Shown: positions 10,490 through 55,442, counted from the whole stretch's first letter. The stretch: DNA of 55,442 bases, filler included, from Ionaspis alba (GCA_964255285.1; 4 parts of 4 records of this genome joined end to end with filler, not necessarily neighbours in it); one strand, 5' to 3'. The notes: a model not told the origin generated them from the sequence alone. A program made the numbers and translations.

Positions 10490-10589
10490 NNNNNNNNNNN
10501 NNNNNNNNNNNNNNNNNNNNNNNNNNNNNNNNNNNNNNNNNNNNNNNNNNNNNNNNNNNNNNNNNNNNNNNNNNNNNNNNNNNNNNNNN
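10490..10589. other. Assembly gap (100 N) between the convergent GDE1 and PRMT5 stop codons
   Basis: Run of N immediately after the GDE1 TAG. Confidence 0.98.
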
Positions 10590-13801: not shown

Positions 13802-13901
13802 NNNNNNNNNNNNNNNNNNNNNNNNNNNNNNNNNNNNNNNNNNNNTTAATTAATTAANNNNNNNNNNNNNNNNNNNNNNNNNNNNNNNNNNNNNNNNNNN
13901 N
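13802..13901. other. Assembly gap with artificial TTAATTAATTAA six-frame-stop linker
   Basis: An identical 12-mer is centred in the N runs at 13846, 27747 and 41637. Confidence 0.95.
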
Positions 13902-27702: not shown

Positions 27703-27802
27703 NNNNNNNNNNNNNNNNNNNNNNNNNNNNNNNNNNNNNNNNNNNNTTAATTAATTAANNNNNNNNNNNNNNNNNNNNNNNNNNNNNNNNNNNNNNNNNN
27801 NN
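27703..27802. other. Assembly gap with TTAATTAATTAA linker (hides the QTRT2 5' end)
   Basis: N run with linker. Confidence 0.95.
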
Positions 27803-38164: not shown

Positions 38165-38968
38165 TTCGATGAGGTTGTATTTTAGATTTGTGGAGTAAAG
38201 AGAAACATGATATCTTAGTTGAAAGATCAGAACTGCATAATCCTTCCAGCATACAAAGGTTCTCGGTGAACGTTTTTGCTGAGAGCTAGACAAATATAAT
38301 TCTCGTGAGAGGACAGAAAGCTGTTGCCTGGAAAGGATTACGCAGCTTTGAAGCAGGACAGTGATGGCAAACCAGAGCTTACGACGACAACCGATCTACT
38401 TTCCGGAACTCAGGACAAGAATAGAGGTTGATAAATTGCAATATGATCGCGAATACCTATGCTGATCAGCAAGGAATAGGAAAGTTGGCAAAAGCTGTGA
38501 GATATAGAATTAGGTTCTTTAGAGCTTGGCGGAAGAGAAGCGCATGTCAGCGCGTGCGCTTGAGACTAACCAGGACTAAGTCTTTAGCGTCGCTTTGCAA
38601 TCTCCCTCCCAAGCGAGATCCAGGAACGAAAGTAAACAAAGCAACGTCATTTTCAAGACCAACTTCACAATCACATTCGCTTCATTCTGGTCTTCTTTCT
38701 GTGTTGCTTCAGGCATTGAGCCAGCAAATCAAATTTCTTCCCTTTCTTTCGACTATCTCCTACACTCGTTTGACGTTAATGCGGTTGCAAGGGCGATTCC
38801 ACGGCCGAAGACAATAGTGTAAACAAACACTGCAAGCATTCGGAGCCACGAATCCAGTATCCAGGACTTCCTACATACCTCTTAGACTCGAATTCGTGCT
38901 GTTCTCTTCAACTATCAAAGGGAAGATCATCGAGTTTCGAATCTCTGATTGACTCGCCAGGTCAAACA

Positions 38969-41592
38969 ATGGTCGGTATGACGAATACGACTCCCTCCCT
39001 ACCGACTCGATTTCCCTGCTGGTGCAGGGCCGTCTATTCATGGGGAGGAGAGTCGAAGAAAGATCTTGGTTTTGTGGAGGGGGATCTGATAGAATGCCTG
39101 AATGCTGGTGATGGGTCGTGGTGGATGGGTCGGTTGCGCCGCGACAAACGAGCTATGGGACTCTTTCCTTCGAATTTCGTGCAAGTCCTGGAGGAGAGCT
39201 TCATACCTGTGAGCAGAGCAACTAGCCCACTCCCTGGGCAAAATGGGTCAGGCAGCATATCTCGCGCCTCAAGTCCGAACCCATCGACGAAGAAGGCCGC
39301 TCGAAAACCATTTCAATCCTACTCGACACCTACACCTCAAGCGAGTTCAAAGAGCTTGCAGATCGCTTCCGCAGTTCCCTCGCCGACTCCTAGTCGACAG
39401 AATAGCTTCAATACGCAAACAGCTCATACTCCCATATCACGAAACAACTCCGGCTATCATTCGCGCTCCCCTTCGCCAGCTCCACCCCAACATCACATCG
39501 CGGGCAATGCTTCTCCCACTCCTTACCAAGCCTATGGTTCCTCGCCCCCTCCACCCGTACCGCCTCCACATCGTGTTGCTTATTACAATCCTCCACCTAG
39601 AGCAGCACCATCTCCTACACCTTCCATGAATGATCGATATCCTTCCATTTCACAAGGCCAATCGCCTATACCACACTCACCCAATGTCCATGGACACACG
39701 CCATCTCCCTTACGCGATGCTATGGAAGACGTCATGAGTTCTTTAGATGGTATGGCACTCAGACGAGATGCTCCATCTCCATCACCTGAACGGCCAATTG
39801 ACCCGTGGTCACCCGAGGCATTTGACGAACTACGTACAAAGCCAAGAGGAAGGGAATATGGGAGACCAAGGACGTCTTTGGGGTTAGGAGCTTCTGAGGG
39901 CAGCAGCTGTCAGTATGACAGTGGTTACGGTACTCAACAAGAAGGGCCTAGCCCAGACGAAGATGACGAGCCTCCATACTTGAGCACATACGTCTCACGC
40001 ATGGAGAATCGGCTGCGCAGCATGCAGGACAACTCGCCAAACACACATCGACACACCCTACCAGACAGTGATATGGGCCCCCCGCCAGCGCCACCCCCAA
40101 AGAACTCGCCATACCAGCCAAGGACGGAGTCTTCTCTAGATTACCAACCGCCAATTGCTGATGCGGACCGGAAGCTTCGAAGTCGAAAGTCGGCATTCGA
40201 ATTAGGAAAGGAAATGATTGGTCGGACGTTTACCACAAAATCGACTGTGACCAATGCATCCAACGGGACACAGAGCTCCAGTAGCACCACAAGTACACAA
40301 ATGACGAGTCAGAGTATCATGAGTGGACACTCCGCGGGAGGCTTCAGTGCAACGAGTGCAGGTAGTCTTGCCAGAAGGAAAGGTTGGGGAAGTATCAGAG
40401 GAATGAGACCTTCGAGCGTGGCAGGATTTCGTCAAGACAAGCTGATGGCAATGCAAGGCGGCGGATCGGCCTCGAGACCGATGACACCGCTCACAGGTAT
40501 CAGCTATCATTCTAGCCATGACTCCAGACCAGCGTCTGCTGTTCCGCCAGAATGGGCTGGTAGTGTTGCAGATTCTGGCGGTCCGTTGGGTGGGCTCAGT
40601 GGACTGCCACAAATTAAACCTAAGAAGAGTGGCTTCTTGAGAAAGCTCATGGATTCTGCAAGGACGGGTGCTGCGAGTGCCCGAGGCAGTATTGCTGCGG
40701 GACAGGTGGACTCATCGAGAAGTCCGGTCAAGAGCATGTTTCCGAAAGGTGTTACCGCAATATCTGGAGGTAGCGTCGCGAGGGATATGGGCTTAGGTGG
40801 AGCTGATGGTAGTGGGACAATTGATTGGGTTCAGATTCGACGAGATGTCAATCGGTCCAATTCGCTCAGTCGCAATGAGAGGACTGAACGGGCCGAGAGG
40901 TGTCAGATGATGGATCATCCGGTCATAGCTCCTGTTGACGAACTTTTCGAAGTGGCTGAAGGAGACGAGGGGCTTGACGGAATGCCGATATCAGAACCTA
41001 CCAATTTCCAAACTGTGAACCTTCAACTTGTCGATAAGAACACTCGTTTCATTACCAGCTTGCCTCCGATGACAAACCCAACGAGTCTTGCTCAAGGCTA
41101 TGTCTGCAGGCCCTATAGAAGCGATGTGCAAAGGTTCAGAGCAATCTTTACTTGGTGTAGTGAGAAGGTGGCTTGGGAAGAGGACTTTGAAGGAGAGGTA
41201 GACTCGAGACGAGTGATTCAGATGCGAAGAGGTTGCGCGGAAGAAGTTGCAGTCCTTGTCATGGAGATGTGCTCAGCCGTAGGCCTTCACGCCGAAGTCA
41301 TACGAGGCTATCTCAAACCTCCTGGCGAAGTTACAGATCTCGACAGTATACCCAGACCAAATCACTGGTGGAACGCGGTCCTGGTCGACAACGAATGGCG
41401 CATCATCGACTGCTCTCTTGCCAGTCCCACGAACCCAAAACGGAGTCTCTACTCCAGCGCGCCTTCTCAAGCCGCAGAATCATTCTACTTCCTTACCCGT
41501 CCGCTTGAGATCTGCTACACGCACATCCCTTCCATCCTCACCCAGCAACATATTGTTCCACCCATCGCTCCTGCAGTTCTTCTCGCTCTTCC
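38969..41592 (+). CDS. CYK3: Cytokinesis protein 3 (SH3 + transglutaminase-like domain), 3' partial at gap
   Basis: SH3 CRAVYSWGGESKKDLGFVEGDLIE..WWMG..GLFPSNFV; long Pro/Ser-rich linker; TGase-like VQRFRAIFTW..VIRGYLK..NHWWNAVLVDNEWRIIDC. Confidence 0.93.
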
Positions 41593-41692
41593 NNNNNNNN
41601 NNNNNNNNNNNNNNNNNNNNNNNNNNNNNNNNNNNNTTAATTAATTAANNNNNNNNNNNNNNNNNNNNNNNNNNNNNNNNNNNNNNNNNNNN
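41593..41692. other. Assembly gap with TTAATTAATTAA linker; hides the 3' ends of both CYK3 and the CHAT-STAND gene
   Basis: N run; both flanking ORFs are open into it from opposite strands. Confidence 0.95.
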
Positions 41693-44600
41693 CGGCAGAA
41701 GCTTCCCTGAGGCCCAAGAATTGTGCAACATTGCTTCTGAGCTGGCCGGCCTCCGCCAGAAATTCATTCACTGTTGTCACTTCGAGAGACGATCGACCAC
41801 GCATTATTTCAAATCCCCGTGTGTTCAGGACTATATTCCGAGAGACAAGATCGCGTAAATCTGGATCTGTATGTTTCCAAATTTGAAACATGGGGCGAGT
41901 TTTGACATAACTCCACTGAGTCAAGTATTCTTTTACAGGCTTCTGTAACAGATCGCTACAGAAAATGGCACGCACGAGGGCGTTCACGGTAGCCACCTCC
42001 AGATCTGTTGCAATGCTCCAGGTTTTGTAATCGCAATCCTGAGATTCAGTATCATAACCGCCAGTGTCAGAGTTTGTGAATTTTTGGCGGGTCCAGGTGA
42101 TAACCCGCAGTGCTTTCTGAATGAAGAGACTGAGCACGCGATCTGCAAGTCTCATCCGTCTTGGATCCGACAGAGCTGCTGTTGACATGAAATACTGCAC
42201 TTGCCAGTGTTCTCCGACAGGCCATGAGTCCGTTCGCTGGTAGCTAATTATCAAAGACAGGTAATTGAAGAAGTCAAAGTCGAGTTCAAACTTCATTGCC
42301 TCATGAACTGGAGATGAGGGATGATATGCACTACAACGCGCCCACTCAAATACCCGATATCTGTACTGGGCATCTCGAGCAATCTCAATATCTTCCACAA
42401 CACTTTGTGGATAAAGAGCTCGCACAACTGTACTCTGAGACACCAGCGAGATAAGTGGGTTGATGGAAGAACAAATGCTGCGCAATTGGTGTCCCGAGCT
42501 GCCAAAATTTCGCTCAACTGGACCCTGTACGAAATGCAACAGATGTTTGGTTCGAGCGTCGCAGAATTTGGCGAAAGATTTCGTTGCTGCGTACAAGCAA
42601 TAATGGGCAATGGCTGGGGAAAGCCCGAAGGCTTCCTTGCTCGTCAACTTTTTGTAATTATAGCGTTGGTCGCGAACGCCTTCCTCCGAGAACTCGCAAA
42701 GATGATTACGAAATCTGATGAAAGCTTCATCTTTCAAATAGCGTCTCACTACGAGGAGAATGCCAAATGTAATAATGAAAGGTTCGAGATTATGGGGCAG
42801 ATTATGCCAGAAGCCGAGGAAGACCGCAGCAGAGTAAAACCCACAATTCGCAAGCTTACGGTTAGTTACGGGTTCTCCAATCATCGGATTAAAGGTTCTG
42901 TGACCTTGCCAGAGCATCTGAATGGAATGATTCAGCGCCTCAAGAGAATCATCTGAGATGGTGAGTGGGTAATCTTCTAGAGGTAAGACGTCGTCATGAG
43001 GCGCGTCGACGCTGTGTAACCTTGAATCCGTATTGACATCATCAGCAATCCACTCAAGGATTTCGACCACCGCACGTGCTCCTCCATCGGAGGCAAGTCT
43101 CTCTTTATCCAGGAACACTGGCCGTAGCTGGACCAAAGACAGTAGATGAGACAGTATTGTGGCAGAAGGATCCTCTGCAAAATGCTTCGCCAAATCGTAC
43201 ACTATGACTCGGATGGCCAGGGGATTCCCTTGAGACATTGTGATTAGTTGTTCGAAGTAGGATTTATCATCTTGTGTTGCAAGCTTTGAGGAGAACTCAA
43301 GGTTTCGCAAAATACCGGTAGCCAACGCAATAGTGTTTGACAGATCGATCGGTTCCAAAATGATCCAGGATTGGATCGCGGTACCCAGCCAAAGGTCTTC
43401 TGTTCGAGACAAAACCACGACGGAGCATCTTTTGAGCCTCTTCAAGCACAACCAGATTTCACGTTGATGTTCCGATAGAGTCAGATCAGATGACCAATCT
43501 AAGGCGTCAATACTGTCTAGTACAATTAAGGACGACCGTTCGTCTAATGCTGCTATCAGGGAATTCGTCGAGTGATCTTTGGTATCAATTTGGATTTGTG
43601 ATACCATTGACTTCAAGATTTTGTCTGCAGTACAATCCCGAAATTCTGCGTCGGTCAACTGAATATAAATCGTCCTCTGAAACAGTCCGGTCTGTTGCCA
43701 CCACGCTCTTGCTTCTTGCAGCAGTCTGCTTTTACCGACTCCAGGAGATCCTTGCAGATGTATTCGACTTCCTCCTACTTGAGTCAATAGCCATTCGAGT
43801 CGAAGAAGATCGCCCTCACGTCCAACGAGCTCCGACGCCGCTGGATGGCCGCTGATCGGAGACTCTGCACTCTCAAAAACCGGTGCAGCTTGTCGTAAAT
43901 CTTCTATTTCAGATTCCTGGCAGTGTATGATCGGCACCAGATGGTCTTCGATGCTAATCATTGTGTGGTATTTGCTCATACGGGTGGAATTTCGTCGTAA
44001 CTCTCCTCTCGCGTGTGACACAGCTGCGATTGGCGAGGTTCGTTGACCCAAATATTGGTTGTAAAAGTACCGCATGAACTGATCGGCAGACAAAGAGAAA
44101 ATGTTGAAAGACATGCCAACAGCAATCCTGATACCTGTCCGTACTAGAAGACTAGCAATGTTGGATGCTTCGTTCGACCCTGCAGCCGAGCGACAGGCAT
44201 TGATTACGACAGTCCGAACGCCACATTCGACCAAAAGAGCTGCGACGTCCGCAGCTTGCCTCTCGTCGGGCTGCAGTTTCATGCCCGGGCTAGACTGAGT
44301 AAACATCAACCGTGCCCTGGGAATGACTCACATCGTTAGTATCTGGCATGATTAAGCATCTCCAATCTTCATACCCTTGTCCATCGGAGTCGCCGTGGAG
44401 GTCCAGGTGGACTACACCGAAATGCCCATACGGATGCCGTCTAATATGCCACTCAAGGGCTTTAAATGTTCCTGGGCGTACTATAGTTAACGTGGCTTGC
44501 GAGTTAGAATCATTCCGGATTGTGTCTATCGCGGCGGATATCGATCTGGTGATCAAGCGGTGCGGAATGTCTTTGGTATATGAAGGACGGGCTGTAATGG

Positions 44601-45180
44601 CGAGAACATGTGTTGCCTCCGTACTTGAGGGTAGTGGAGTGTGTATATAATCTCCAATTGTTTGGTGCTGAATTTTGATTTCGTGAACGCGGATAACGGT
44701 CACCTGACGAGGCTCCAAGTGAAAGACATCGCGCCAGAGACTTGTGTCTTCGAGAATTTCCCAGAAGAATCCATGTATGATCGAGCTCCCGGCAACTTCA
44801 CCAGCACCCCAGTCTCGGACCTCTAGAACGAAATGTTCTGGGGCCTTGGGATTTGGACAGATAACGGGCTGCAAAAAGGATTCCAAGAGCTTTCTTCCCT
44901 GGTCTTGAATTTTTTGCGCGATTGTTCGCGCTCGGGCATGTGCGAAAGGTTCTTTGATGATGTACTGCTCAAAGTACCATTGGAAGTCCTCTAAGCTCTC
45001 ACCAGTCACGGTCTTGAGCAGATCTTCGGATGCAGGGCAATGCTTGTGGACTGAGCCAGATTCCACTGACACTAAAACGCTCTCTGCTCCGGCCTTTATT
45101 GAACCAAAGCTCGCATTGGGAGTCTTGTCAACGGCAGCAACCGAGACAGGCTGCAGCGACACTCGGACGATCATGTTCAT
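41693..45180 (-). CDS. NLR-like protein: CHAT (caspase-like) protease + STAND/NB-ARC-type NTPase + helical C-terminal region (3' partial)
   Basis: Exon 1 45180-44375, intron GTATGA..ACTAAC..CAG 44374-44317, exon 2 44316 to the gap. CHAT dyad VVHLDLHG and VVINACRSA, then VGMSF; LVGREGDL, Walker A GSPGVGKS, Walker B LIVLDSID, sensor VVVLSR, GxP motif QGNPLAI. Confidence 0.88.
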
Positions 45181-45465
45181 GTGTCTTATAATCCAAGAAA
45201 TAAACGACGACAAGCAGTTCAGCTCTTTGGAGCGTCTGCGGCCCCAGCTCTCTCTGTGTCAGCGTTTAGATCTGTTGAGCTTGGCGTCCGTGGTCGTTCT
45301 CCTGTAGCCGAGCCCGATGTGGGGTAGAGTCTGGAACCCCCTGGTCTGCGTGTGATAAGGCGCCGACAAGTCGGACACATTGTACAGCGTTGACTTCTAC
45401 CGTATCTCGAGATATAGTGGACGAAAGCCAGATCGCCAAGCCAAGTGACCGGCGTCAGGATTGAC

Positions 45466-46317
45466 ATGATGACGAAGAAAAACAGCTTCTACTTGTTGGA
45501 ACCCTTCCAGGGCATTCCGGTGGACAAGCCCGAGGACTGGCTTGCCCGAATCATTAGCGATTACAATCGCCCTCGCGCCGCCTTCACACCCTCCAAGGCT
45601 CGAGAACCGTATTTCGAGTTCGATACCGATCGCGACTTTTCGGATCTTGAGAGGATTCTCAAGGATGTCCATTCGAAGACGATTGCCTTATCTTTGCGCA
45701 ACGTGTTCGATATATCGCACGAGGACTTCACATCAAAGAAACATACGTTCCGAAGCCGCAAAGTCGAGCGGCTCCGCATCCACCACGATGCGGTTGTGCT
45801 TGAACGGACGCTGGCCGACCCGGAAGTTGTATCCGATATCGAGGGTTGGGATCTGAATGTGTTCAGCCCCATGTATTTCGTAGTCGGGCTGTTGGTGACC
45901 AGCGACATCACGTATAATTCGTCAGAGACGTCAGGGCACAACACCAAGGCCGGCATAGACCCCGTGAACGCCCTCGGCGTGGCAACCGGTGTTCCCGCCG
46001 GCGTCGTGCCGTCTGCCAAGATTGACGCTGAGGGCAAACACCAGGAATCGACGACAGCTCACACTCGAGCGTCCGGCAACAAGCGTGTTTTCGCGGTCGA
46101 ATACCGGTCATTCAGAAAAAAACTGCGGCAACGGCCGGGCAAAGTCGGCAAGCTGGGTGGCTATGGACCGCAAGGGGACCGGACATTTGGGGCTACCGAA
46201 CAGGCGGACGATGACGTTGAAGTCCAGGTTGAGCTGGATCCTGAGCCTTTTTCGGATATCATGGAGGTCGATGGGACGGAAGAACGGTGTCTGCTGCTTG
46301 ATGATAGTGATCAGTAG
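45466..46317 (+). CDS. Fungal gasdermin-like pore-forming protein (RCD-1/HET-Q1 family)
   Basis: 283-aa intronless ORF with the family pattern: FYLL..., WLARIISDYNRP, MYFVVGLLV, Gly/Ala/Val-rich hairpin (ALGVATGVPAGVVP), RVFAVEYR, then TFG and an acidic ~40-aa tail. Lies divergently next to a protease gene. Confidence 0.8.
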   Translation: MMTKKNSFYLLEPFQGIPVDKPEDWLARIISDYNRPRAAFTPSKAREPYFEFDTDRDFSDLERILKDVHSKTIALSLRNVFDISHEDFTSKKHTFRSRKVERLRIHHDAVVLERTLADPEVVSDIEGWDLNVFSPMYFVVGLLVTSDITYNSSETSGHNTKAGIDPVNALGVATGVPAGVVPSAKIDAEGKHQESTTAHTRASGNKRVFAVEYRSFRKKLRQRPGKVGKLGGYGPQGDRTFGATEQADDDVEVQVELDPEPFSDIMEVDGTEERCLLLDDSDQ

Positions 46318-46385
46318 AGACGACTACTTTCCGGACCAAAGTTATAAGCGGTCCATCACCATCAAGATAGTATATTCGCTTAGAT

Positions 46386-46904
46386 GTGTCCAGTGGAATC
46401 ATCTATGTCCCAGTTCAGGGCTTCATAAAAGAAATGTTTAGAAAGGCTTATACCCATTTCATTGTTCTGAGAGCGTCCGAATTCGATCCCTTACAAAACA
46501 TCAGCGAGCAAGCTTTGAGGTCCGTGGATGTAAAGGTAGAGAACGGAAGGCGTACGAGTATACCTAGCCCGCTCGATTCTCTTATTCCAAGTTCCGGATT
46601 CGGATCTCCTGAAAGCTTGATCCTGTTATACAGCATTGTGCATGCAATCAAAGGATGATAGTCCTGCTGCGGACGTGTTGGAATGGTTTGAGACCGTTGG
46701 TGCCCGGTTGGCCGATACAGGCCAGGATTGCGAAACCTTGCTGCACATGTAGCCAAGCATGATACTCCACAGGCAGCTCAGATGGTCAAGTACCTTCGTG
46801 TGGAGGGATTTAACCCCGTGGTGCAGGATGTAAAGGGTAGGACAGCAGTAGATGTGGCGCATGAATATGGCAATAGTAGTCTGCTGGAACTTCTTGAAAG
46901 TTAA
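46386..46904 (+). pseudogene. Degenerate ankyrin-repeat gene remnant with two frameshifts
   Basis: Frame-hopping translation: ..LLYSIVHAIK / DDSPAADVLEWFETVGARLADTGQDCETLLH / VAKHDTPQAAQMVKYLRVEGFNPVVQDVKGRTAVDVAHEYGNSSLLELLES*. Shifts near 46653 and 46748; the 5' boundary is uncertain. Confidence 0.65.
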
Positions 46905-47040
46905 GGCATATGTATGGAACATCAAGCATACGGTTATTACCGTCTATTCCTAAGCCTTTCCAGCGCTGTAGAATTCTCAGAGCTATTCACAGATGTCTCT
47001 CATACATATTGTATACACTTCCCTGCCCCGCCCTTGGTAT

Positions 47041-48504
47041 CTACAATTTATCAATAATCGCCGCTGCATACTCGTGCGTCTTTGCTTTCCCGCCAAGGTC
47101 ACCCGTCAAAAACTTTCACTGTGTCAGCCTTGTCGTTGACACAAACATGGAGTGGCATTTCTTACCTTTCCTTCCGCCAATGCGGCGAATATGGCCTTCT
47201 GGATCCTGTCCGCATGCTCGTTCAAACCCATATGCTGCAACATCATGATACTACTCAACAGCAGCGCCGTCGGATTCGCAAGTCCCTTCCCAGCAATATC
47301 AGGTGCCGAGCCATGGACAGCTTCGAAGATCGAACACTCGTCTCCAATATTGCCCGAGGGTGTAAGACCGAGCCCACCGATCAACCCAGCGCACATATCT
47401 GACAAAATATCACCGTACAAATTCGGCATGACAAGGACCTTATCGGCATATGGTGCAGGATCCGTGACGATCTTTAAGCAAGTGTTATCCAGCAATTCGG
47501 CATCAAACTCAATATTCGGGAAGTCCTTGCTGATTTTCCGCGCTGTGCCGAGGAAGAGTCCATCGGACATCTTCATGATTGTGGCCTTGTGTACTGCGCG
47601 AACCTTCCTCTTGCCAACTTCCTCGGCATACTGGAATGCGAATCTCAGGACGCGCTCTGAGGCTGCCCGTGTGATGAGCTTGATGCTCTGGACGACTCCA
47701 TCTACAACCACGTGTTCGATACCGGAGTATTCGCCCTCGGTGTTTTCTCGGATGAGCACAGTATCAACGTTGTCGTAGGGCGTTTTGTAGCCAGCGATTG
47801 ACTTGCAGGGGCGGACGTTGGCGAAGAGGTTAAATGTCCGGCGGAGAGTGAGATTAAGTGAGACGTGACCCTTACCAATGGGGGTCTGGTATGTGTTAGT
47901 ATATGCTCGAAACAGGCTGGGGTCGAGGGTGTCGAACGGCTAGAGGTCCTTTTAGGGCGACAAAGTTCTTCCTGACACTGTCAATCGCCTCGTCTGGTAT
48001 GACTGTCTTGCCATCCTTCAATTGCGGTGTAACATCAACAGGCTCCCATTGAATTGGTGTCTGGTGTCGTTAGTGAGTAGACATGGGCTAGAGTGTTACG
48101 GCTTGGTACTTTTGCAGCGGCGAAGATGTCCTTGACTGATTGTGCGATCTCGGGTCCGATCCCGTCTCCTTCTATCAATGTCACTGTGAATTTACCCTAA
48201 TGAAACCTCTGATCAGTCCTGCTTCTCTACCGTGTTGTCCCATCGCATAATGATAACAGCTTAATCGGGAGAGGGTCGTACATTGGAGCCTTTCGTTCCC
48301 TTGAATTTGGCGACTTTGTCTTTCTCTGCCACGTACGTCCTCGACTGAACCTTTCGTGAACATCAGCAACCTGTACAATGCAGTTTCTCAAGCATTGACC
48401 CTAGGAGAACTTGCCTTTGCAAATGCAGGAATCCACAGCTGGGGCGCGTTACTTCGTCTGAGACATTGCCTCGAAGTGGCGGCTAAAGAGCGACTGACGA
48501 GCAT
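47041..48504 (-). CDS. IDH2: Mitochondrial NAD-dependent isocitrate dehydrogenase, catalytic subunit 2
   Basis: Mitochondrial presequence [58 protein letters not shown] and [13 protein letters not shown] (catalytic-subunit type); several introns. Confidence 0.96.
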
Positions 48505-48803
48505 ATTGAGCACCAAGTTCGGGTTCTCAAAGCTCACGAGATTGAAGCAAAGTGTATATGCAGGGAGCTTTGGCGGGGACGTTGGAGCCAGCAGAAGCAA
48601 TTTACTCGAGGTCGGCGGCGCTAACCGAGCCCGTCTCCAGGCTTTAGTGTTCGGCCAATTTATGCCGCCGGGCTTCACAACAACACGGCATTCGCGTGAG
48701 GCCTTGGAATCTCAGCCAAAACAATCCATATATCTTCTTACTATTTCTAGATTCCTTACAGAGATGAAAACCCCAAACCCATTGCATTCATGTATATCCA
48801 ATA

Positions 48804-50499
48804 TCAGAACGCCCGCCCTTCTTCCGCTATCTTCCCACTCACGCCTCTCATTCGAGCTCCATCACGCAGTCCATTGTCTGCCCCTGAGCTTACCACTCTG
48901 CCATCCCTGACCATTCCTCGATGCATATCACCATAGAACCGAGCTTTGCTACTGACCACACCCATTCCTCCACTACGGCTTGAATAGTTCTTTTCAGATG
49001 TGATAGAGCTGTTTCCCGACCTCGACGTGAGTGCTCTTTGCTCGACTGGTCTCCGACCATCCCAATTAATTGGAGGCGTAGGAGGGTTCATCTCCAGTGG
49101 CCGCATGGTGGCACCCGTGAAATCGAACTTGTTTGGTTTTGGCGAGGCGTTTGAATTGCGTAGATGCTGAAACTCGGGCGGCGCAACGTGAAGCTCCGGC
49201 GATGGCGAAGGCGAGGGATAAGTGATCCAATTCTCATCAACTGGAGACACGGAAGGAGGTCGAGCTGAACCTGGACGGCTGTTTCTCCGAGACTTCGCGT
49301 GGAGCGATGCTCTTGAAGGTGAACGACTGGTGTATTTGACGAAGTCCGCCATGGAAGAGCGCTCGGAGAATGGCTGCTCATAGATCGTTTGCGTGAGGTC
49401 TACCTGAGAACGCTCTGGAGAACGATCTGGCGAATGTGCCTCCGAGAGATCTATTTGAGACTCACGATTGCTGGTGTTCAAGTTGCGTTGAGAAGGCACA
49501 CTAGAGGAAGAGTCTGTACGAGTGTGCAGAAAAGGTATTTTGCGAGGCGGTCCGATAAGAGGATCGGAGAGATGAGAGTTACGATTGCTGTTAGCTTCTG
49601 TGGCGCTCATAGAAAGTGAAGATTTGTTGCGTTTGTGGCGAGATGTCAGGTTATCCTCCAAAGGATTCATATCAGGCGGAAGCCTAGAGATCTTTCGAAA
49701 GACGAGAGCAAGATATACCGATATGCAGAGAGATACTAGGTGAAGGCCTCCATTGGTGATGGTGATGAGAAAAAGCGAATATATGATTTTGTACCTATCA
49801 TCGGGCCTGTCAGCACCAAACAGAGTCGTCCATCCATCTGGCGAGTCGCTGCTTTGCGTATATTGTGAGCGCGAAATCAATGCCGTAAATACAAAAAACG
49901 GTATCAGGCCTGCGTCCATGATAGCGGAGAAGAGCATGTAGCTAGCGGACGATGCGGGAGTTCGGCCCTTGGAGGATCGCATCAGGTGGTAGACGGCATA
50001 GACGGTGTGCATAATAGCAACTCCAGGCTGCAATCCTCAGTGTTTGATCGTGTGACAAGAACTACCCAACTCACTGGTACTCTGATAATCCATCCCAGAG
50101 TCCCATCTGTCCCCTTGATGCAAATCACACAGACCAACATGCCCAGTGCCCCAAGGAGCGCGCAGATGCGCAACAATAGTAGCAGTATTCTTGTCCATTT
50201 GACATATATTTTTGTATTTGGGCTCATCGACTTCCAATTGAGGTTCCCATAGGGTCTGTTTATGATCGCAATAAGCATTGAATGCATTGACTGGGAGGGG
50301 CGTCTGACATGATGAAGTAGGAATCAGGATGCCTGTTGAATTCCCTCGCATTGATCAATGGACCATCTTGCTTCGGTCTTGGTGCTCGAGGTGTCAGGCT
50401 TGCTTGCGAAACGGCCTTCGGGTTGAAACCCCTCTCTGTTGGACCAGAGAACGAATACTTGGAGGGATGGTCGTAGAGGAACGGCGGTTCGACCCCCAT
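48804..50499 (-). CDS. Conserved fungal four-TM membrane protein with Ser/Pro/Arg-rich cytoplasmic tail
   Basis: Exons MGVEPPFLYDHPSKY..FNRHPDSY, hydrophobic segments LRICALLGALGMLVCVICI, MLFSAIMDAGLIPFFVF and LHLVSLCISVYLALVF, then RKISRLPPDMNPLEDNLT. Confidence 0.75.
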
Positions 50500-50758
50500 A
50501 TCTATACACAGTAATCTAATATATTGTATAGACAAAGCATGAAAGGGTTTATTCAATAAATGGCCCTCAACAAGAGTGAAGAAGATATGTAACAAGGATG
50601 TATGGTTTGGAGCGTATAAGTGTTTGGCCTAATCGGAGGGCTCCCTCCAAGTAAAGGTTGTGCTGCATTGTCCGGGCAACAATCAGTAGCGACCCCTTGG
50701 AGCGCCACTATCAACGCCATCATGATAGATTTGCCATGCTCAATGTGTTTGACCACTA

Positions 50759-52364
50759 ATGATCGTTCGACATGCCACAACCGTAGGCAGTAAACAGGGA
50801 GTGCGATGGAGTCAACGTTCCCCCTTCCTCCCGTCGGTGTCGCAGGCTCTCTGGAAACGGTACAATAGCAATGTGGTCAAGAGTCAGAGACCCTTCAGGG
50901 TCGCCGTCATCGGATCAGGACCGGCGGGATTCTACAGCGCCTCAGAGGTGATAAACAAGGTGGAAAATGCTACCGTCGACATGTATGAGCAGCTGCCAGT
51001 GCCGTTTGGACTAGTGAGGTTCGGCGTGGCGCCAGATCATCCAGAAGTCAAGGTCGGCAAAACGCTGTTCATCGTCAGGGATGATACATAGCTGACAGCA
51101 ATATTGTTAGAACTGCCGAGACAAATTTACAGAGGTCGCCGAATCTCCAAACTTCACATTTATCGGCAACGTCGATGTTGGCAACTCCATACCCCTCTCC
51201 GTCCTCGAGCCACATTATGACGCCTTTATCTTTGCTTACGGCGCCTCGAAAGACCGCCAGCTTGGAATTCCAGGAGAGAAAAACTTGAGTGGTGTCTACT
51301 CTGCGCGCGCCTTCGTCGGCTGGTACAATGGCCTGCCAGAGTACTCCGATTTCTCCCCCGATCTCTCTGGCGAGGAAGCAGTTATCATAGGCCAAGGCAA
51401 TGTCGCTCTAGACATTGCTCGCATGCTCCTCAGCAATCAGGACCGCTTGTGTAGAACAGACATTACCGCTCGAGCCAAGTATGCTCTCCGCAAGAACCAA
51501 GTCAAACGTGTTCACGTGGTCGGGAGAAGAGGGCCTCTACAAGCATCCTTCACTATTAAAGAGGTCCGCGAACTCATGACTTTGCAAAACACCGCATTCT
51601 ATCCCCTCGACCGGTCTCTCTTTCCTCCAGATGTCTCGGCGCTTCCCCGCGCCAAGAAACGATTGTCGCAGCTCCTCCTGAAAGGTTCTGAAACTCCCGT
51701 ACCAGCGCCAAAATGCTGGTGGCTTGACTTCTGCCTGTCTCCTACATCTTTCAATAGCTTACCAGCCGCACCAGGCAAACTTAGTTCGACGACCTTCGCA
51801 AAAACCGCCCTTCAAGGTCCTGATCCCTTTGCTCCGAACGCCAGAATCAATCTCACAGACGAAACCGTAACCATTCCATCCGCCGTTGCTTTCAAAAGCA
51901 TCGGCTACAAGTCGGAAGCTATACCGGGAATGGCTGACCTCGGGATCCCTTTCGACGAAGAGAAGGGTATCGTTCCCAATGACGGGTCCGGCCGGGTCCT
52001 AGCTCCTTCACCCGACTCTGACAATAGTACGCTGAGCCATGTACCCAAAATGTACTGCGCTGGCTGGGTTAAACGTGGACCGACCGGTGTGATTGCTAGA
52101 ACTATGGATGACGCGTTTGAGACTGCAGAGGCGGTTGCTATGGATTGGAGTCTGCAGCAGCAGGAGGGCTCCGCTGAAGCTTCGCAGGTGGAGAAAGGGG
52201 GGTGGGACGCTGTCCGGAGTGATTTACAGAGACAACCTCTGAGGCCCGTGAGCTGGAAACAATGGGAGAAAATTGACAGTGCGGAGAGGGAGAGGGGACG
52301 CAATATGGGAAAGGAGAGAGAAAAGTTCGAAACAGTGGACGAGATGCTGGCCGTCCTGAGTTGA
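50759..52364 (+). CDS. ARH1: Mitochondrial NADPH:adrenodoxin oxidoreductase
   Basis: VAVIGSGPAGFY, PFGLVRFGVAPDHPEVK/NC (intron 51053-51110), AVIIGQGNVALDIAR, VGRRGP, GWVKRGPTGVI. Confidence 0.95.
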
Positions 52365-52571
52365 ACCAATCTTCCGTATGCTCGCTCGTCACCGGTTTGA
52401 GAGGACACTCGAACCACTCATAAGTGACCCTACAGACAGTAGTTGTCCCAAATGTCAGGGCTCCCATGATGCTAGGCGGTCAATATATTCCTAATCTATA
52501 TGCTTTACGCATAATCATAAAATGTGTCCCAAAACATTGGACGTAACGCGACACCAAGCCCAGAGCTTCGT

Positions 52572-54623
52572 CTAAGCTGGCCGTTCCAGTTCGCTCATTC
52601 TCGCTTTCGCCTTCGTAACATGATCATGCCTGATACTCCACAGACTTACAATAACACCCACCAGACTCGCACCAAACGCTATCCAATACGCCGTGCTGTA
52701 GCACTTCAAGCCATCCGGACAATTACGGTGACCGTCAGGGCCAATACTCGAGTGATGATCATAAATAGCGCCATAAACAAGATTGAAAACATTACCGGAG
52801 AAAACAGGTGCCATAGTCATGAAGCCCCAGTTTTGTGAAAGACCGAGGACGCCGAATGTCTCGGCCACGAGGGCTGGGTAGACGCCGAAAAGGAATCCAT
52901 ATGCCACTAGAAACGATCAGCCAGCCCGCAAGATACAAGGAAATACTCAATCATCCAACGTACATCCTGTCAATCCTGAGACGAATATTAAGTGGTTAGG
53001 GTTTTCAATTCGAGCTCCACAAACTTGGGCCACGCAGAAGATACTGCTGGATATGAAGAGACACCAAAAGCGGCTCATATGCAACTTCTTTACTATCAAG
53101 TCGGAGCCGATGCCTGCGATGGAGAATTTTAGCATCATGCTACGTAGACTTGTAAGGGGTGTCTGACCACTGAGAAGTCGACCAAAGAAGCTGAAGACGG
53201 ACAAGTTTGATACGTGCATGAGCTGACGTCGTTGAATCCATCCAGGCGTGGCGCTATCATCATAATGACTCCAAAGTGCTTGAGCCTGTTGGTCGGTCAG
53301 TATACGCATAGCGGAAAAGGATAGACTGTTACTACGTCGTTTCCGATATTGCTAAGTATTTGGTAAGCTATCTCGCATGACCACAAGCATTCAGACTTAC
53401 TTAATCGTCATCAACCCTATTCCTGTCAATAGTCCCAGCATAAGCCACAGCTGCCAAAATTCGACTTTTGACAGTAGTGCGACTCCTCGAATATCTAGTT
53501 GATGTGGATCGTGAGCTACGGTGTCGCCCTTCCCAGAAGCGTCTTCAATGTCCCCAGGACCAGACATCGAAGATTTAGACATCAATGAGGAAGTTTCATC
53601 TGTGTCCGGATTAGGGACCTCAGGTTCCTCGCAACAATTACCCGACTGCGTGGACAAATCGCTCGAACATGAAGTGTAATCGCTATGTGCTGCTTGATGC
53701 GTACCTGGTTCTGGCGAGTGCTCTCGTCTGTGGTGCTTGCTGTCTCCAGACTTGGTACGGTGCAGTGGATTTGAATCGTTTCGAATAAGGCCATCGCGCG
53801 TAGGTACTGCTGAGTATCCAGTGATATGCGGGACGACCCGGAGAATAAATGATGGGAAGAATATCATGCAAAATGCTCCGACCGATAATAATATGAGAAA
53901 GTTTGAAGTGTTATTGGGGAAGGCAAAAATTGATATCGTAGAGAAGAAAAAGGCGCTGAGACCGAAAGCGGAGAGAGGGAATGCTGTAGCTGTTCCTCTA
54001 TGGCCAGGCCAGTTCAGAACAGCTAGAACTATATCAACGCCATTGTGCTAACTCATACGGCGAGGATTCTTACACGTTTTGATGGATCCAGAAAATGCAG
54101 CACAGCCCCCACAACCGGTCATAAACATGAACAAGCACAGCCAAGGGAGGGCGATAGATCCAGCTCCGCTCTCATAAGCTGAGAAGCATCAGTTTCGTTC
54201 AGGCTTGAGGCGTCTTATGTCGAGTCTTACCTCTATGCAGAGAATAGTAGCCCGTGCCAAGCATGACGGACCCGAACAGTACACCAGGTTTCGCACCCTT
54301 TGCATCGACGAGGAGGCCAACTGGTATTCCAGATGCGTACATGCCAATATTACCGCATACCCCCTGGAGCCGTTAGCATCGGAGACATGCCCTTGCGGTG
54401 AAGCTGACTTACTATTAAATTGCTTTGGGTCGAAGACAATTTCATATGCGCCGCAAATTGTGGTGCCCATGCCGAGTAGGCATACTATAGACGACCAGCA
54501 TCAACAAAGCTCCGAATCGATCACTGTCATGTGATAACATACATTTGTGCCACAAGCTAACGATATGATCGTGGCTGCAACTACGGACAATATCCTCGTC
54601 CTCCTCTTGGCTCTTTCAGACAT
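52572..54623 (-). CDS. MFS transporter, MCH1/nodulin-like family
   Basis: RILSVVAATIISLACGTN, NWPGHRGTATAFPLSAFGLSAFFF, LGLLTGIGLMTI, FSFFGRLLSG, AYGFLFGVYPALVAETFG, NWGFMTMAPVFSGNVFNLVYGAIYD; multiple introns. Confidence 0.88.
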
Positions 54624-55088
54624 CTCCGTAGCCGCTCAGCACAATTACACTTTCAAACAGAACCAAATACTACCGCAAGCTCATTTTCGAGGGGAGAAAG
54701 TGGGCGAGCGAAAGTACCGCGGAAGTCCGGCTGATAAGAAGAATCAAGGATAAACGTTTAAGATGAGAAGCTGTTCGTGGGGACGAAGTATTGGACTGAA
54801 GCTTGGTGCAGAAGTTTAGAGTATAGAAGACGCTCTCAAATCAGATTTGTTGAGAATATGAGAAGGCAATTGTGGGGAAATAGATGAGCTGTGAAAGTAA
54901 TGAGATGATTGTTAATACTGCTGATTGTTTGATATCAAACCAATCAACGTCATCTACAACGCCGACCTGTACTAAGCTAGATTAGGCTTGGTACAGCCAC
55001 GCAGCTGCGCATCATAGCCTTCCGCTTCATCATCGGTGCATCAGTTCTACCTAACAGATCAAAGACAGCATCGACGACCCGGCTCACC

Positions 55089-55442
55089 ATGGGTGCTCTA
55101 CTATCCCTTCCGCTGCTCGCTCTTCCGAGCATGGGCACAGTATGTTCTCCATCATCAATTTGAAATGGATAAAATGTTGATCGAGTGATAACCAGCTTGC
55201 TACTTTCGGAGCCTCCTGTTGCGGGGCGGCAACCTGCTCAGCAGTATGCAGCTCCTGTGGAAAGTTCCAAAGCAGGTCAGTACTCTTCTCCCTATACCAT
55301 TATTTAGATCGTTAATATATTTCTAGTATGGCCACTCGCATCGCATATGCCTTCATTCTACTCGTCAACTCCATCCTCTCCTGGCTCATGCTCACACCTT
55401 GGGCGCTGAAGAAGCTTGAACACCTGACTCTCGACTATATGA
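55089..55442 (+). CDS. TMS1: SERINC/TMS1 membrane protein (5' part; runs off the window)
   Basis: MGALLSLPLLALPSMGT / LATFGASCCGAATCSAVCSSCGKFQS / MATRIAYAFILLVNSILSWLMLTPWALKKLEHLTLDY, with two GT-AG introns. Confidence 0.9.

Follow-up and report, generated by a model that had tools for sequence, protein, structure and literature searches.

A probable protease-activated pore pair: a fungal-type gasdermin gene divergent from a CHAT-NLR gene in Ionaspis alba

The stretch analysed here (the window: 55,442 nucleotides, filler included, from Ionaspis alba, GCA_964255285.1) consists of four pieces, and at the very start of the fourth (41693-55442) we found two genes arranged head-to-head. One encodes a gasdermin-like protein and the other a NOD-like receptor (NLR) that carries a caspase-like CHAT protease domain. 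Coordinate 41693 is the first base past an artificial linker, so that the NLR gene is without its 3' end in the window. The first-pass annotation of this DNA had proposed a 283-residue gasdermin-like open reading frame (ORF) at 45466-46317, with a gap of 285 bp to a divergent ATG at 45180 on the minus strand; the frame is indeed open over 283 codons plus a stop, and the ATG-to-ATG distance is exact. The features of the pair are listed below, with His262, Cys310 and Lys464 in the numbering of the spliced protein.

45466..46317, plus strand: gasdermin-like gene, an intronless coding sequence for 283 residues plus stop
45466..46113, plus strand: predicted pore-forming domain, residues 1-216, with long beta strands in the model at residues 52-76, 81-105, 136-164 and 186-216
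46105..46158, plus strand: basic stretch, residues 214-231, net charge +8 over 18 residues
46159..46191, plus strand: conserved motif GYGPQGDRTFG, residues 232-242, predicted protease recognition or cleavage region
46189..46314, plus strand: acidic C-terminal tail, residues 242-283, 42 residues, 4.67 kDa, net charge -15
45181..45465: divergent intergenic region of 285 bp, presumed common promoter
44375..45180, minus strand: CHAT-NLR exon 1, ATG at 45180, 268 codons plus 2 nt, N-terminal half of CHAT
44392-44409, minus strand: HLDLHG, with the predicted catalytic His262
44317..44374, minus strand: intron of 58 nt, GTATGA...TACTAAC...CAG, with GT..AG ends and a TACTAAC branch site, between the His and Cys motifs
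41693..44316, minus strand: CHAT-NLR exon 2, partial, open to the piece end without a stop
44187-44201, minus strand: NACRS, with the predicted catalytic Cys310, inside the Pfam CHAT match
43182..43793, minus strand: NB-ARC/NACHT nucleoside triphosphatase (NTPase) module, Pfam NB-ARC at exon-2 residues 175-378
43728-43751, minus strand: Walker A motif GSPGVGKS, containing Lys464
43512-43529, minus strand: Walker B motif LIVLDS
43215-43229, minus strand: GxP motif GNPLA

We examined the gasdermin-like protein with an alignment of 124 rows (A2), made up of the window protein, 14 of its 21 close homologues and 109 of the 150 representatives listed; rows of about 250-360 residues were retained, and fragments and four longer proteins were left out. 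The second Met is the start in 113 of the 119 occupied rows, suggesting that translation more probably begins at the second ATG, 45469. The close homologues came from a word-indexed protein search, which gave 21 proteins at E≤0.001 among 1,299 candidates (54-90% identity, mostly 279-302 residues). A profile of 20 homologues searched against 1.84 billion representatives gave 178 proteins at E≤0.001, including 72 at ≤1e-10 and 26 at ≤1e-30. When the A2 profile was run against PDB sequences, it recovered five fungal gasdermin sequences, namely RCD-1-1 (E 6.9e-8) and its maltose-binding protein fusion (1.7e-6), the HET-Q1 pore (2.4e-5) and RCD-1-2 (5.5e-4 and 0.04), and the sole other row was a zinc-finger protein at E 7.1. 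The AlphaFold model built from the 124 rows had a predicted local distance difference test (pLDDT) of 79.5 and a predicted template-modelling score (pTM) of 0.72, and took an extended, pore-like form. In a Foldseek comparison of this model with the PDB, ranks 1-9 were all gasdermin oligomers, eight of them pores and one a slinky-like bacterial assembly: RCD-1 (E 1.1e-8 and 7.1e-8), a Trichoplax gasdermin, two bacterial gasdermins (the slinky-like oligomer and a pore model), two GSDME structures, GSDMD and GSDMA3. MACPF/CDC pores ranked lower. Identity to RCD-1 was 13-14% in the structural alignments. On the deep profile and the fold model together, the ORF encodes a fungal-type gasdermin, which Pfam does not detect, and the gasdermin-like nature proposed for it in the first-pass annotation is upheld.

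Past the last long strand of the model, the protein runs through the basic stretch, the GYGPQGDRTFG motif and then the acidic tail. Q236-F241 is invariant in a 20-row alignment, and in the 124-row alignment position 241 is F in 91 of the 122 occupied rows (Y in 12, L in 9), position 242 is G in 77 of 121 and position 235 is P in 80 of 122. Tails past the motif column are net negative in 119 of the 124 rows, with a median length of 50 residues and a median charge of -14; model confidence in the tail is low (pLDDT 46-54). In the parts of Clavé et al. 2022 (PNAS; PMC8851545) drawn on here and below, HET-Q1 of Podospora is described as being cut after F238, with a loss of about 5 kDa. The succession of basic stretch, motif and 4.67-kDa acidic tail parallels that loss, and we infer from it that GYGPQGDRTFG is the predicted release site and that the 42-residue tail would be an inhibitory peptide, with F241 as the putative equivalent of F238.

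We then turned to the partner gene. According to the first-pass annotation, the ORF track splits this gene in two and parts the catalytic His from the Cys, and splicing restores an intact HLDLHG/NACRS dyad followed by a complete STAND NTPase. Each of these points agreed with what we found: a 58-nt intron lies between the two motifs, its joint is present in an RNA contig (see below), and removing it gives a reading frame of 1,143 codons without a stop that contains the dyad, GSPGVGKS, LIVLDS and GNPLA. A Pfam search, which the annotation had proposed as a check for CHAT and NB-ARC, placed both above cut-off in exon 2, with CHAT at 34.6 bits (cut-off 24; profile positions 180-273) and NB-ARC at 35.7 bits (23.5), and NACHT also passed at 30.7 bits (26.7); exon 1 searched alone against Pfam gave no match. 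Exon 1 is 40% identical to residues 47-237 of the homologue P0178, the alignment stopping exactly at HLDLHG, and exon 2 aligns with the same protein from residue 259 onward. P0178 itself carries one unsplit Pfam CHAT match at residues 182-355 (profile positions 100-273), followed by NACHT. Because both exons align along P0178, the spliced product is collinear with this unsplit relative, with a one-residue difference in loop length, and by this alignment exon 1 is identified as the first half of the CHAT domain.

Conservation of the key residues was complete among the aligned relatives. V-H-L-D-L-H-G is invariant in 5 of 5 rows and N-A-C in 9 of 9, as are exon-2 residues G189, G192, G194, K195, D267, G363, N364 and L366, which belong to the Walker A, Walker B and GxP motifs. 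We take the His of HLDLHG and the Cys of NACRS to be the catalytic dyad by analogy with clan CD peptidases. The partner is, by these matches, a spliced CHAT plus NB-ARC/NACHT protein with CHAT as its putative N-terminal effector domain. Eight NLR homologues were found, and four of them (P0023, P0025, P0027 and P0029) are 1,458-1,528 residues long and end in TPR families (confirmed for P0023). The database gene calls are plain ORFs, so that the relatives' proteins start in exon 2, and the full partner would accordingly read CHAT, NB-ARC, long linker and TPR over about 1,750-1,800 residues.

Two further observations concern the same receptor type. About 470 residues of the partner (exon-2 residues ~400-874; 41694-43115, minus strand) have no Pfam match and are well conserved among orthologues, forming an unannotated middle domain, and the full-length relatives have some 300 more residues between this stretch and the first TPR match. 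Three CHAT-half relatives (P0179, P0180 and P0181, the last from Trichoderma sp.; 1,587-1,607 residues) carry C-terminal EF-hand pairs instead of TPRs, and in their alignment an NTPase-like region with GPPGVGKS and GNPLA follows CHAT; such proteins may represent a calcium-sensing variant of this type of receptor.

Public sequencing runs gave evidence at the RNA level. Two runs match the stretch, X2, whose kind is not on record and which probably comes from the source itself or from something close to it (0.94 of sampled words), and X1, an RNA-seq run labelled as lichen metagenome (0.15), and their contigs were aligned to the window at a likeness of at least 85%. All four X1 contigs are 90-95% alike to the window and hence come from a relative. 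One of them, of 6,618 nt, covers 41694-44315 and 44374-45213, skipping exactly 58 nt; the joint ends in CT..AC on the plus strand, which is GT..AG on the minus strand, the cut can be moved by one base, and the skipped segment matches the intron. This splice joint proves an RNA origin for the NLR contig, and none of the X2 contigs carries it. A further 3,156 nt of this contig lie past the end of the piece at 41694, which fits a full-length NLR message. Three more X1 contigs cover 45427-46656 without any joint inside the gasdermin coding sequence. Orthologues of both genes are thus present in the contigs of one RNA library, that of a close relative. The contigs end at 45213 on the NLR side and begin at 45427 on the gasdermin side, leaving 45214-45426 without RNA-contig cover; contig depth cannot rank the expression of the two genes, nor can contigs fix transcript ends.

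Some variation was seen in the same contigs. In the relative's RNA contig, 11 nt at 46498-46510, past the gasdermin stop, are swapped for 44 other letters, and there is a 3-nt deletion at 46462, so that the gasdermin 3' untranslated region diverges by indels and the coding sequence has none. Seven of the 32 contigs on the locus have a likeness of 90-95% and one is below 90%. In X2, parts of 41861-45701 are covered twice at similar depth, by a contig without differences from the window and another that diverges from it by 5-10% (at 42881-43095, for example, by contigs with 0 and 18 differences and depths of 72.6 and 66.3). The divergent X2 contigs may stem from a second allele, from a paralogue or from another strain in a mixed sample.

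The linkage of the pair was considered next. Clavé et al. 2022 reported 1,884 fungal het-Q1 homologues, 80% of which have a protease gene within 10 kb, with 63% of the S8 type and 19% (353) of the CHAT type, and gasdermin clades that follow the protease type (PMC8851545, in part). The two ATGs here, 285 bp apart, lie well within the 10 kb used there between a gasdermin and an S8 or CHAT protease gene. Furthermore, 2 of the 8 NLR homologues sit on contigs equal in size, to the base, to the contigs of gasdermin homologues: P0023 (NLR) and P0003 (gasdermin) on contigs of 16,875, and P0024 (NLR) and P0009 (gasdermin) on contigs of 13,543. These two exact coincidences point weakly to a linkage that is conserved.

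The identity and integrity of both genes, the splice, the occurrence of orthologues in an RNA library and the fold of the gasdermin were established here, and we consider it likely that the pair works as a protease-activated pore. In this mechanism, the NLR partner would be both sensor and activator, a ligand presumably being sensed by its C-terminal repeats. Sensing would lead to NTP-dependent oligomerization, which may switch on CHAT by proximity. The activated CHAT domain would then cut the neighbouring 283-residue gasdermin in or beside GYGPQGDRTFG and remove the 42-residue acidic tail, the putative mask of the basic stretch and the pore-forming domain. Once released, the remaining part of about 27 kDa would enter the membrane with its two beta hairpins and assemble into an oligomeric pore, leading to hyphal death. 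Cleavage by the CHAT partner, the cut site, the autoinhibitory action of the tail, what triggers the switch and its biological role are predictions. A complex prediction with three chains (the two CHAT halves and the gasdermin; no alignments were used and the partner fold is uncertain) scored 0.00, which speaks neither for nor against binding.

Several observations weigh against this mechanism or against the assignments on which it is built. On the gasdermin side, a PDB sequence search gave no matches at E≤10 whether the query was the single protein or the 20-row profile, Pfam gave no families at E≤1 for the ORF, and PADLOC and NCBIfam gave no match for it. Across the gasdermin and 123 relatives, Pfam returned no gasdermin model at E≤0.01 and one stray Paralemmin match. 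The ORF does not reach the Pfam gathering score and is therefore not filed under the Pfam Gasdermin pore-forming family; this model is centred on animal proteins and does not define the fungal family. An AlphaFold model from 20 close sequences had a pLDDT of 33.6 and was discarded, and the Foldseek TM-scores against RCD-1 were modest (0.46-0.62). On the partner side, the sensor end of the NLR lies outside the window, the gene being cut at 41693, and a search of metagenome contigs with the 20-row alignment gave a single locus of 1,567 bp, too short to reveal a neighbour. As to the cut, a clan CD protease might cleave after R239 or D238 rather than at F241|G242, and Q1-6, the sole CHAT-linked fungal gasdermin described in the consulted parts of PMC8851545 as experimentally processed, is without a mapped site there. 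RCD-1 works without cleavage, as stated in PDB entry titles and in the parts used of a review (PMC12881547), so that proteolysis is not obligatory for the family.

Other explanations of the pair were weighed against the same evidence. The two genes might be the same machine in a different role, as an allorecognition (heterokaryon-incompatibility) locus like het-Q or rcd-1, or one in the making, where fusion of hyphae with divergent alleles would set off death and foreign organisms would not be what the locus senses. Both characterised fungal gasdermin systems in the sources covered are het systems, and the divergent X2 contigs, at similar depth, could be the second allele; they may just as well stem from a paralogue or another strain, and contig depth gives no copy number. 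The partner moreover retains its NTPase in full, and orthologues also have a long TPR sensor, whereas the het-Q2 allele is described in the consulted parts of PMC8851545 as a protease stripped of its regulatory parts. Taking these points together, we regard an allorecognition role as unlikely.

It is less probable still that the two neighbours are functionally independent, with the gasdermin activated by another protease or without cleavage and the CHAT-NLR acting on other substrates. In favour of independence, 20% of fungal gasdermins lack a protease neighbour (PMC8851545, in part), and RCD-1 is reported, in the sources partly used here, to act unprocessed, through partner alleles. The genes nevertheless stand head-to-head at close range, both orthologues occur in the contigs of one RNA library, the conserved motif and acidic tail are typical of a cleavable gasdermin, published gasdermin clades track protease type (PMC8851545, in part), and the two contig-size coincidences fit linkage. 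That one or both genes are decaying relics, adjacent without present function, seems to us barely credible. The 3' part of the NLR is not visible in the window, which would suit decay, but no stop interrupts the frames of 1,143 and 283 codons, the catalytic and NTPase motifs do not vary, homologues that are 81-90% identical have full-length ORFs, and a close relative has the spliced 6.6-kb RNA-library contig. The protease-activated pore remains the reading that we prefer.

A more speculative proposal concerns the setting of the pair, and we give it a small chance of being right. In lichen-associated ascomycetes, the one-chain CHAT/NB-ARC/TPR receptor and its gasdermin could be transcribed while the thallus is intact and serve as an inflammasome-like checkpoint on symbiosis partners or parasites, a non-self cue leading to localised hyphal death through cleavage at G-D-R-T-F-G by the NTPase-oligomerized protease. 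If true, this would be the first direct demonstration outside animals of an axis in which an NLR acts through a caspase-like protease on a gasdermin, and also the first time that such an axis has an immune-type function in a symbiosis. The lichen-metagenome run hints at a symbiosis setting for fungal cell-death receptors. The matches listed in a literature search on gasdermins and lichens were all unrelated, from which we do not claim absence from print.

The remainder of the window was also surveyed. The four pieces, of about 13.8 kb each, are joined by linkers of 44 N, TTAATTAATTAA and 44 N; TTAATTAATTAA is found at 13846, 27747 and 41637, three occurrences where chance would give none. The gaps and linkers are the following.

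13802-13901, 27703-27802 and 41593-41692: artificial linkers, N runs plus TTAATTAATTAA
2829-2928 and 10490-10589: further gaps of 100 N in the first piece

The piece ends are artificial, so that genes there are cut, and genes facing each other across a linker are not adjacent in the genome. About 800 bp past the gasdermin stop lies an Iso_dh exon (isocitrate/isopropylmalate dehydrogenase; 47124-47939, minus strand; Pfam E 6.4e-80), which sets the cell-death pair among housekeeping genes. Pfam searches of the neighbouring ORFs in the fourth piece found no second protease or gasdermin; four of these ORFs had no Pfam match and one had a weak Nodulin-like match. Long open frames without a Pfam match lie at 48804-50036 (minus strand, 410 residues) and 51111-52364 (plus strand, 417 residues). 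In another piece, an ORF at 38780-41592 (plus strand, 937 residues read) matched SH3 (E 1.2e-5) and a transglutaminase-like core (E 2.5e-10); its 3' end is cut by the linker and it is unrelated to the gene pair.

The pair is best placed beside systems already described. Clavé et al. 2022 noted that some gasdermin partners are NLRs with the protease as N-terminal effector, and an NLR-CHAT-gasdermin model is drawn in their Fig. 6 (PMC8851545, in part). Their Dataset S2 has 83 P-loop_NTPase rows; among 21 of these, 10 are CHAT plus P-loop_NTPase, come from species of Fusarium and from Cyphellophora europaea and have C-terminal parts that measure 677-1,305 residues, in some of them 1,050-1,300, and the other 11 are S8/P-loop/beta-propeller proteins. 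A 2025 review likewise describes, in the parts used, a subset of gasdermin-controlling proteins as NLRs with an S8 or CHAT domain (PMC12881547). The first-pass annotation had read the locus as a two-gene sensor-protease/pore unit mirroring the animal axis in a single fused sensor. Profile, fold, domain and RNA evidence support that reading, but the high novelty attached to it was overstated, since, in the parts of PMC8851545 covered, CHAT-NTPase partners are already listed, the model is already drawn, and a TPR-CHAT protein is already shown to process a neighbouring gasdermin. Its remark that fungal CHAT-NLR pairs are known mainly through genomics is correct as far as the literature search reaches, and in the literature from 2022 on we found no experimental work on a fungal CHAT-NLR/gasdermin pair. 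The pair is therefore a clean and transcribed case of a gene pair for cell death that is already catalogued across fungi, no new type of system, and it leaves the current picture of fungal gasdermins unchanged. What is new is a clade member tied to a lichen-labelled run, a splice confirmed in an RNA library, and the predicted release site and acidic tail. As an example of the NLR-borne CHAT subtype it is compact and apparently intact; in the sources covered this subtype is so far only catalogued, the tested cases being the subtilisin HET-Q2 and the TPR-CHAT protein Q2L-6 without an NTPase. With defined residues at His262, Cys310 and Walker A Lys464, a candidate site around F241 and the 42-residue acidic tail, the pair makes it possible to ask whether NTPase-driven oligomerization turns on a fused caspase-like protease and so opens a gasdermin.

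The closest comparison is with the CHAT subtype of the clusters that resemble het-Q1/het-Q2 (PMC8851545, in part), in which, as here, a short gasdermin gene adjoins a CHAT-domain gene. The present locus is not among the 21 Dataset S2 rows compared, and the NLR form of the CHAT partner is without an experimental test in the literature covered. The gasdermin here belongs to a clade only 13-14% identical to RCD-1 by structural alignment, and its RNA-contig relative comes from a run labelled lichen metagenome. In Podospora anserina, the CHAT protease Q2L-6 is likewise encoded beside its gasdermin, Q1-6, and the isolated Q2L-6 CHAT domain processes Q1-6 and gives a barrage (PMC8851545, in part). 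Q2L-6, however, begins with TPRs, ends with CHAT and lacks an NTPase, whereas the order here is CHAT, NB-ARC and then, in orthologues, TPR. HET-Q1 of Podospora and RCD-1 of Neurospora are of the same family by profile and the same fold by structure as the gasdermin here, and the C-terminal fragment of about 5 kDa that HET-Q1 loses after F238, as described in part of the literature used, compares with the 4.67-kDa tail past F241. HET-Q2 is a subtilisin (S8) rather than a CHAT protease, RCD-1 is activated by allelic partners, and both systems serve allorecognition.

Bacterial gasdermin operons with caspase-like or CHAT proteases (Johnson et al. 2022, in part) are one-strand prokaryotic operons, whereas the genes here form a divergent eukaryotic pair with an intron; the PADLOC models gave no match. 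The animal NLR/caspase-1/GSDMD axis follows the same logic: an NTPase sensor of the NLR type, a cysteine protease of clan CD and a pore made by a gasdermin. The animal axis distributes these over distinct proteins, which CARD/PYD adaptors bring together, whereas here protease and NLR are in one chain; animal GSDMD has a large C-terminal domain and is cleaved after Asp, whereas the predicted inhibitory part here is a tail of 42 residues. The likeness lies in the working principle and in distant homology of the parts, without implying orthology.

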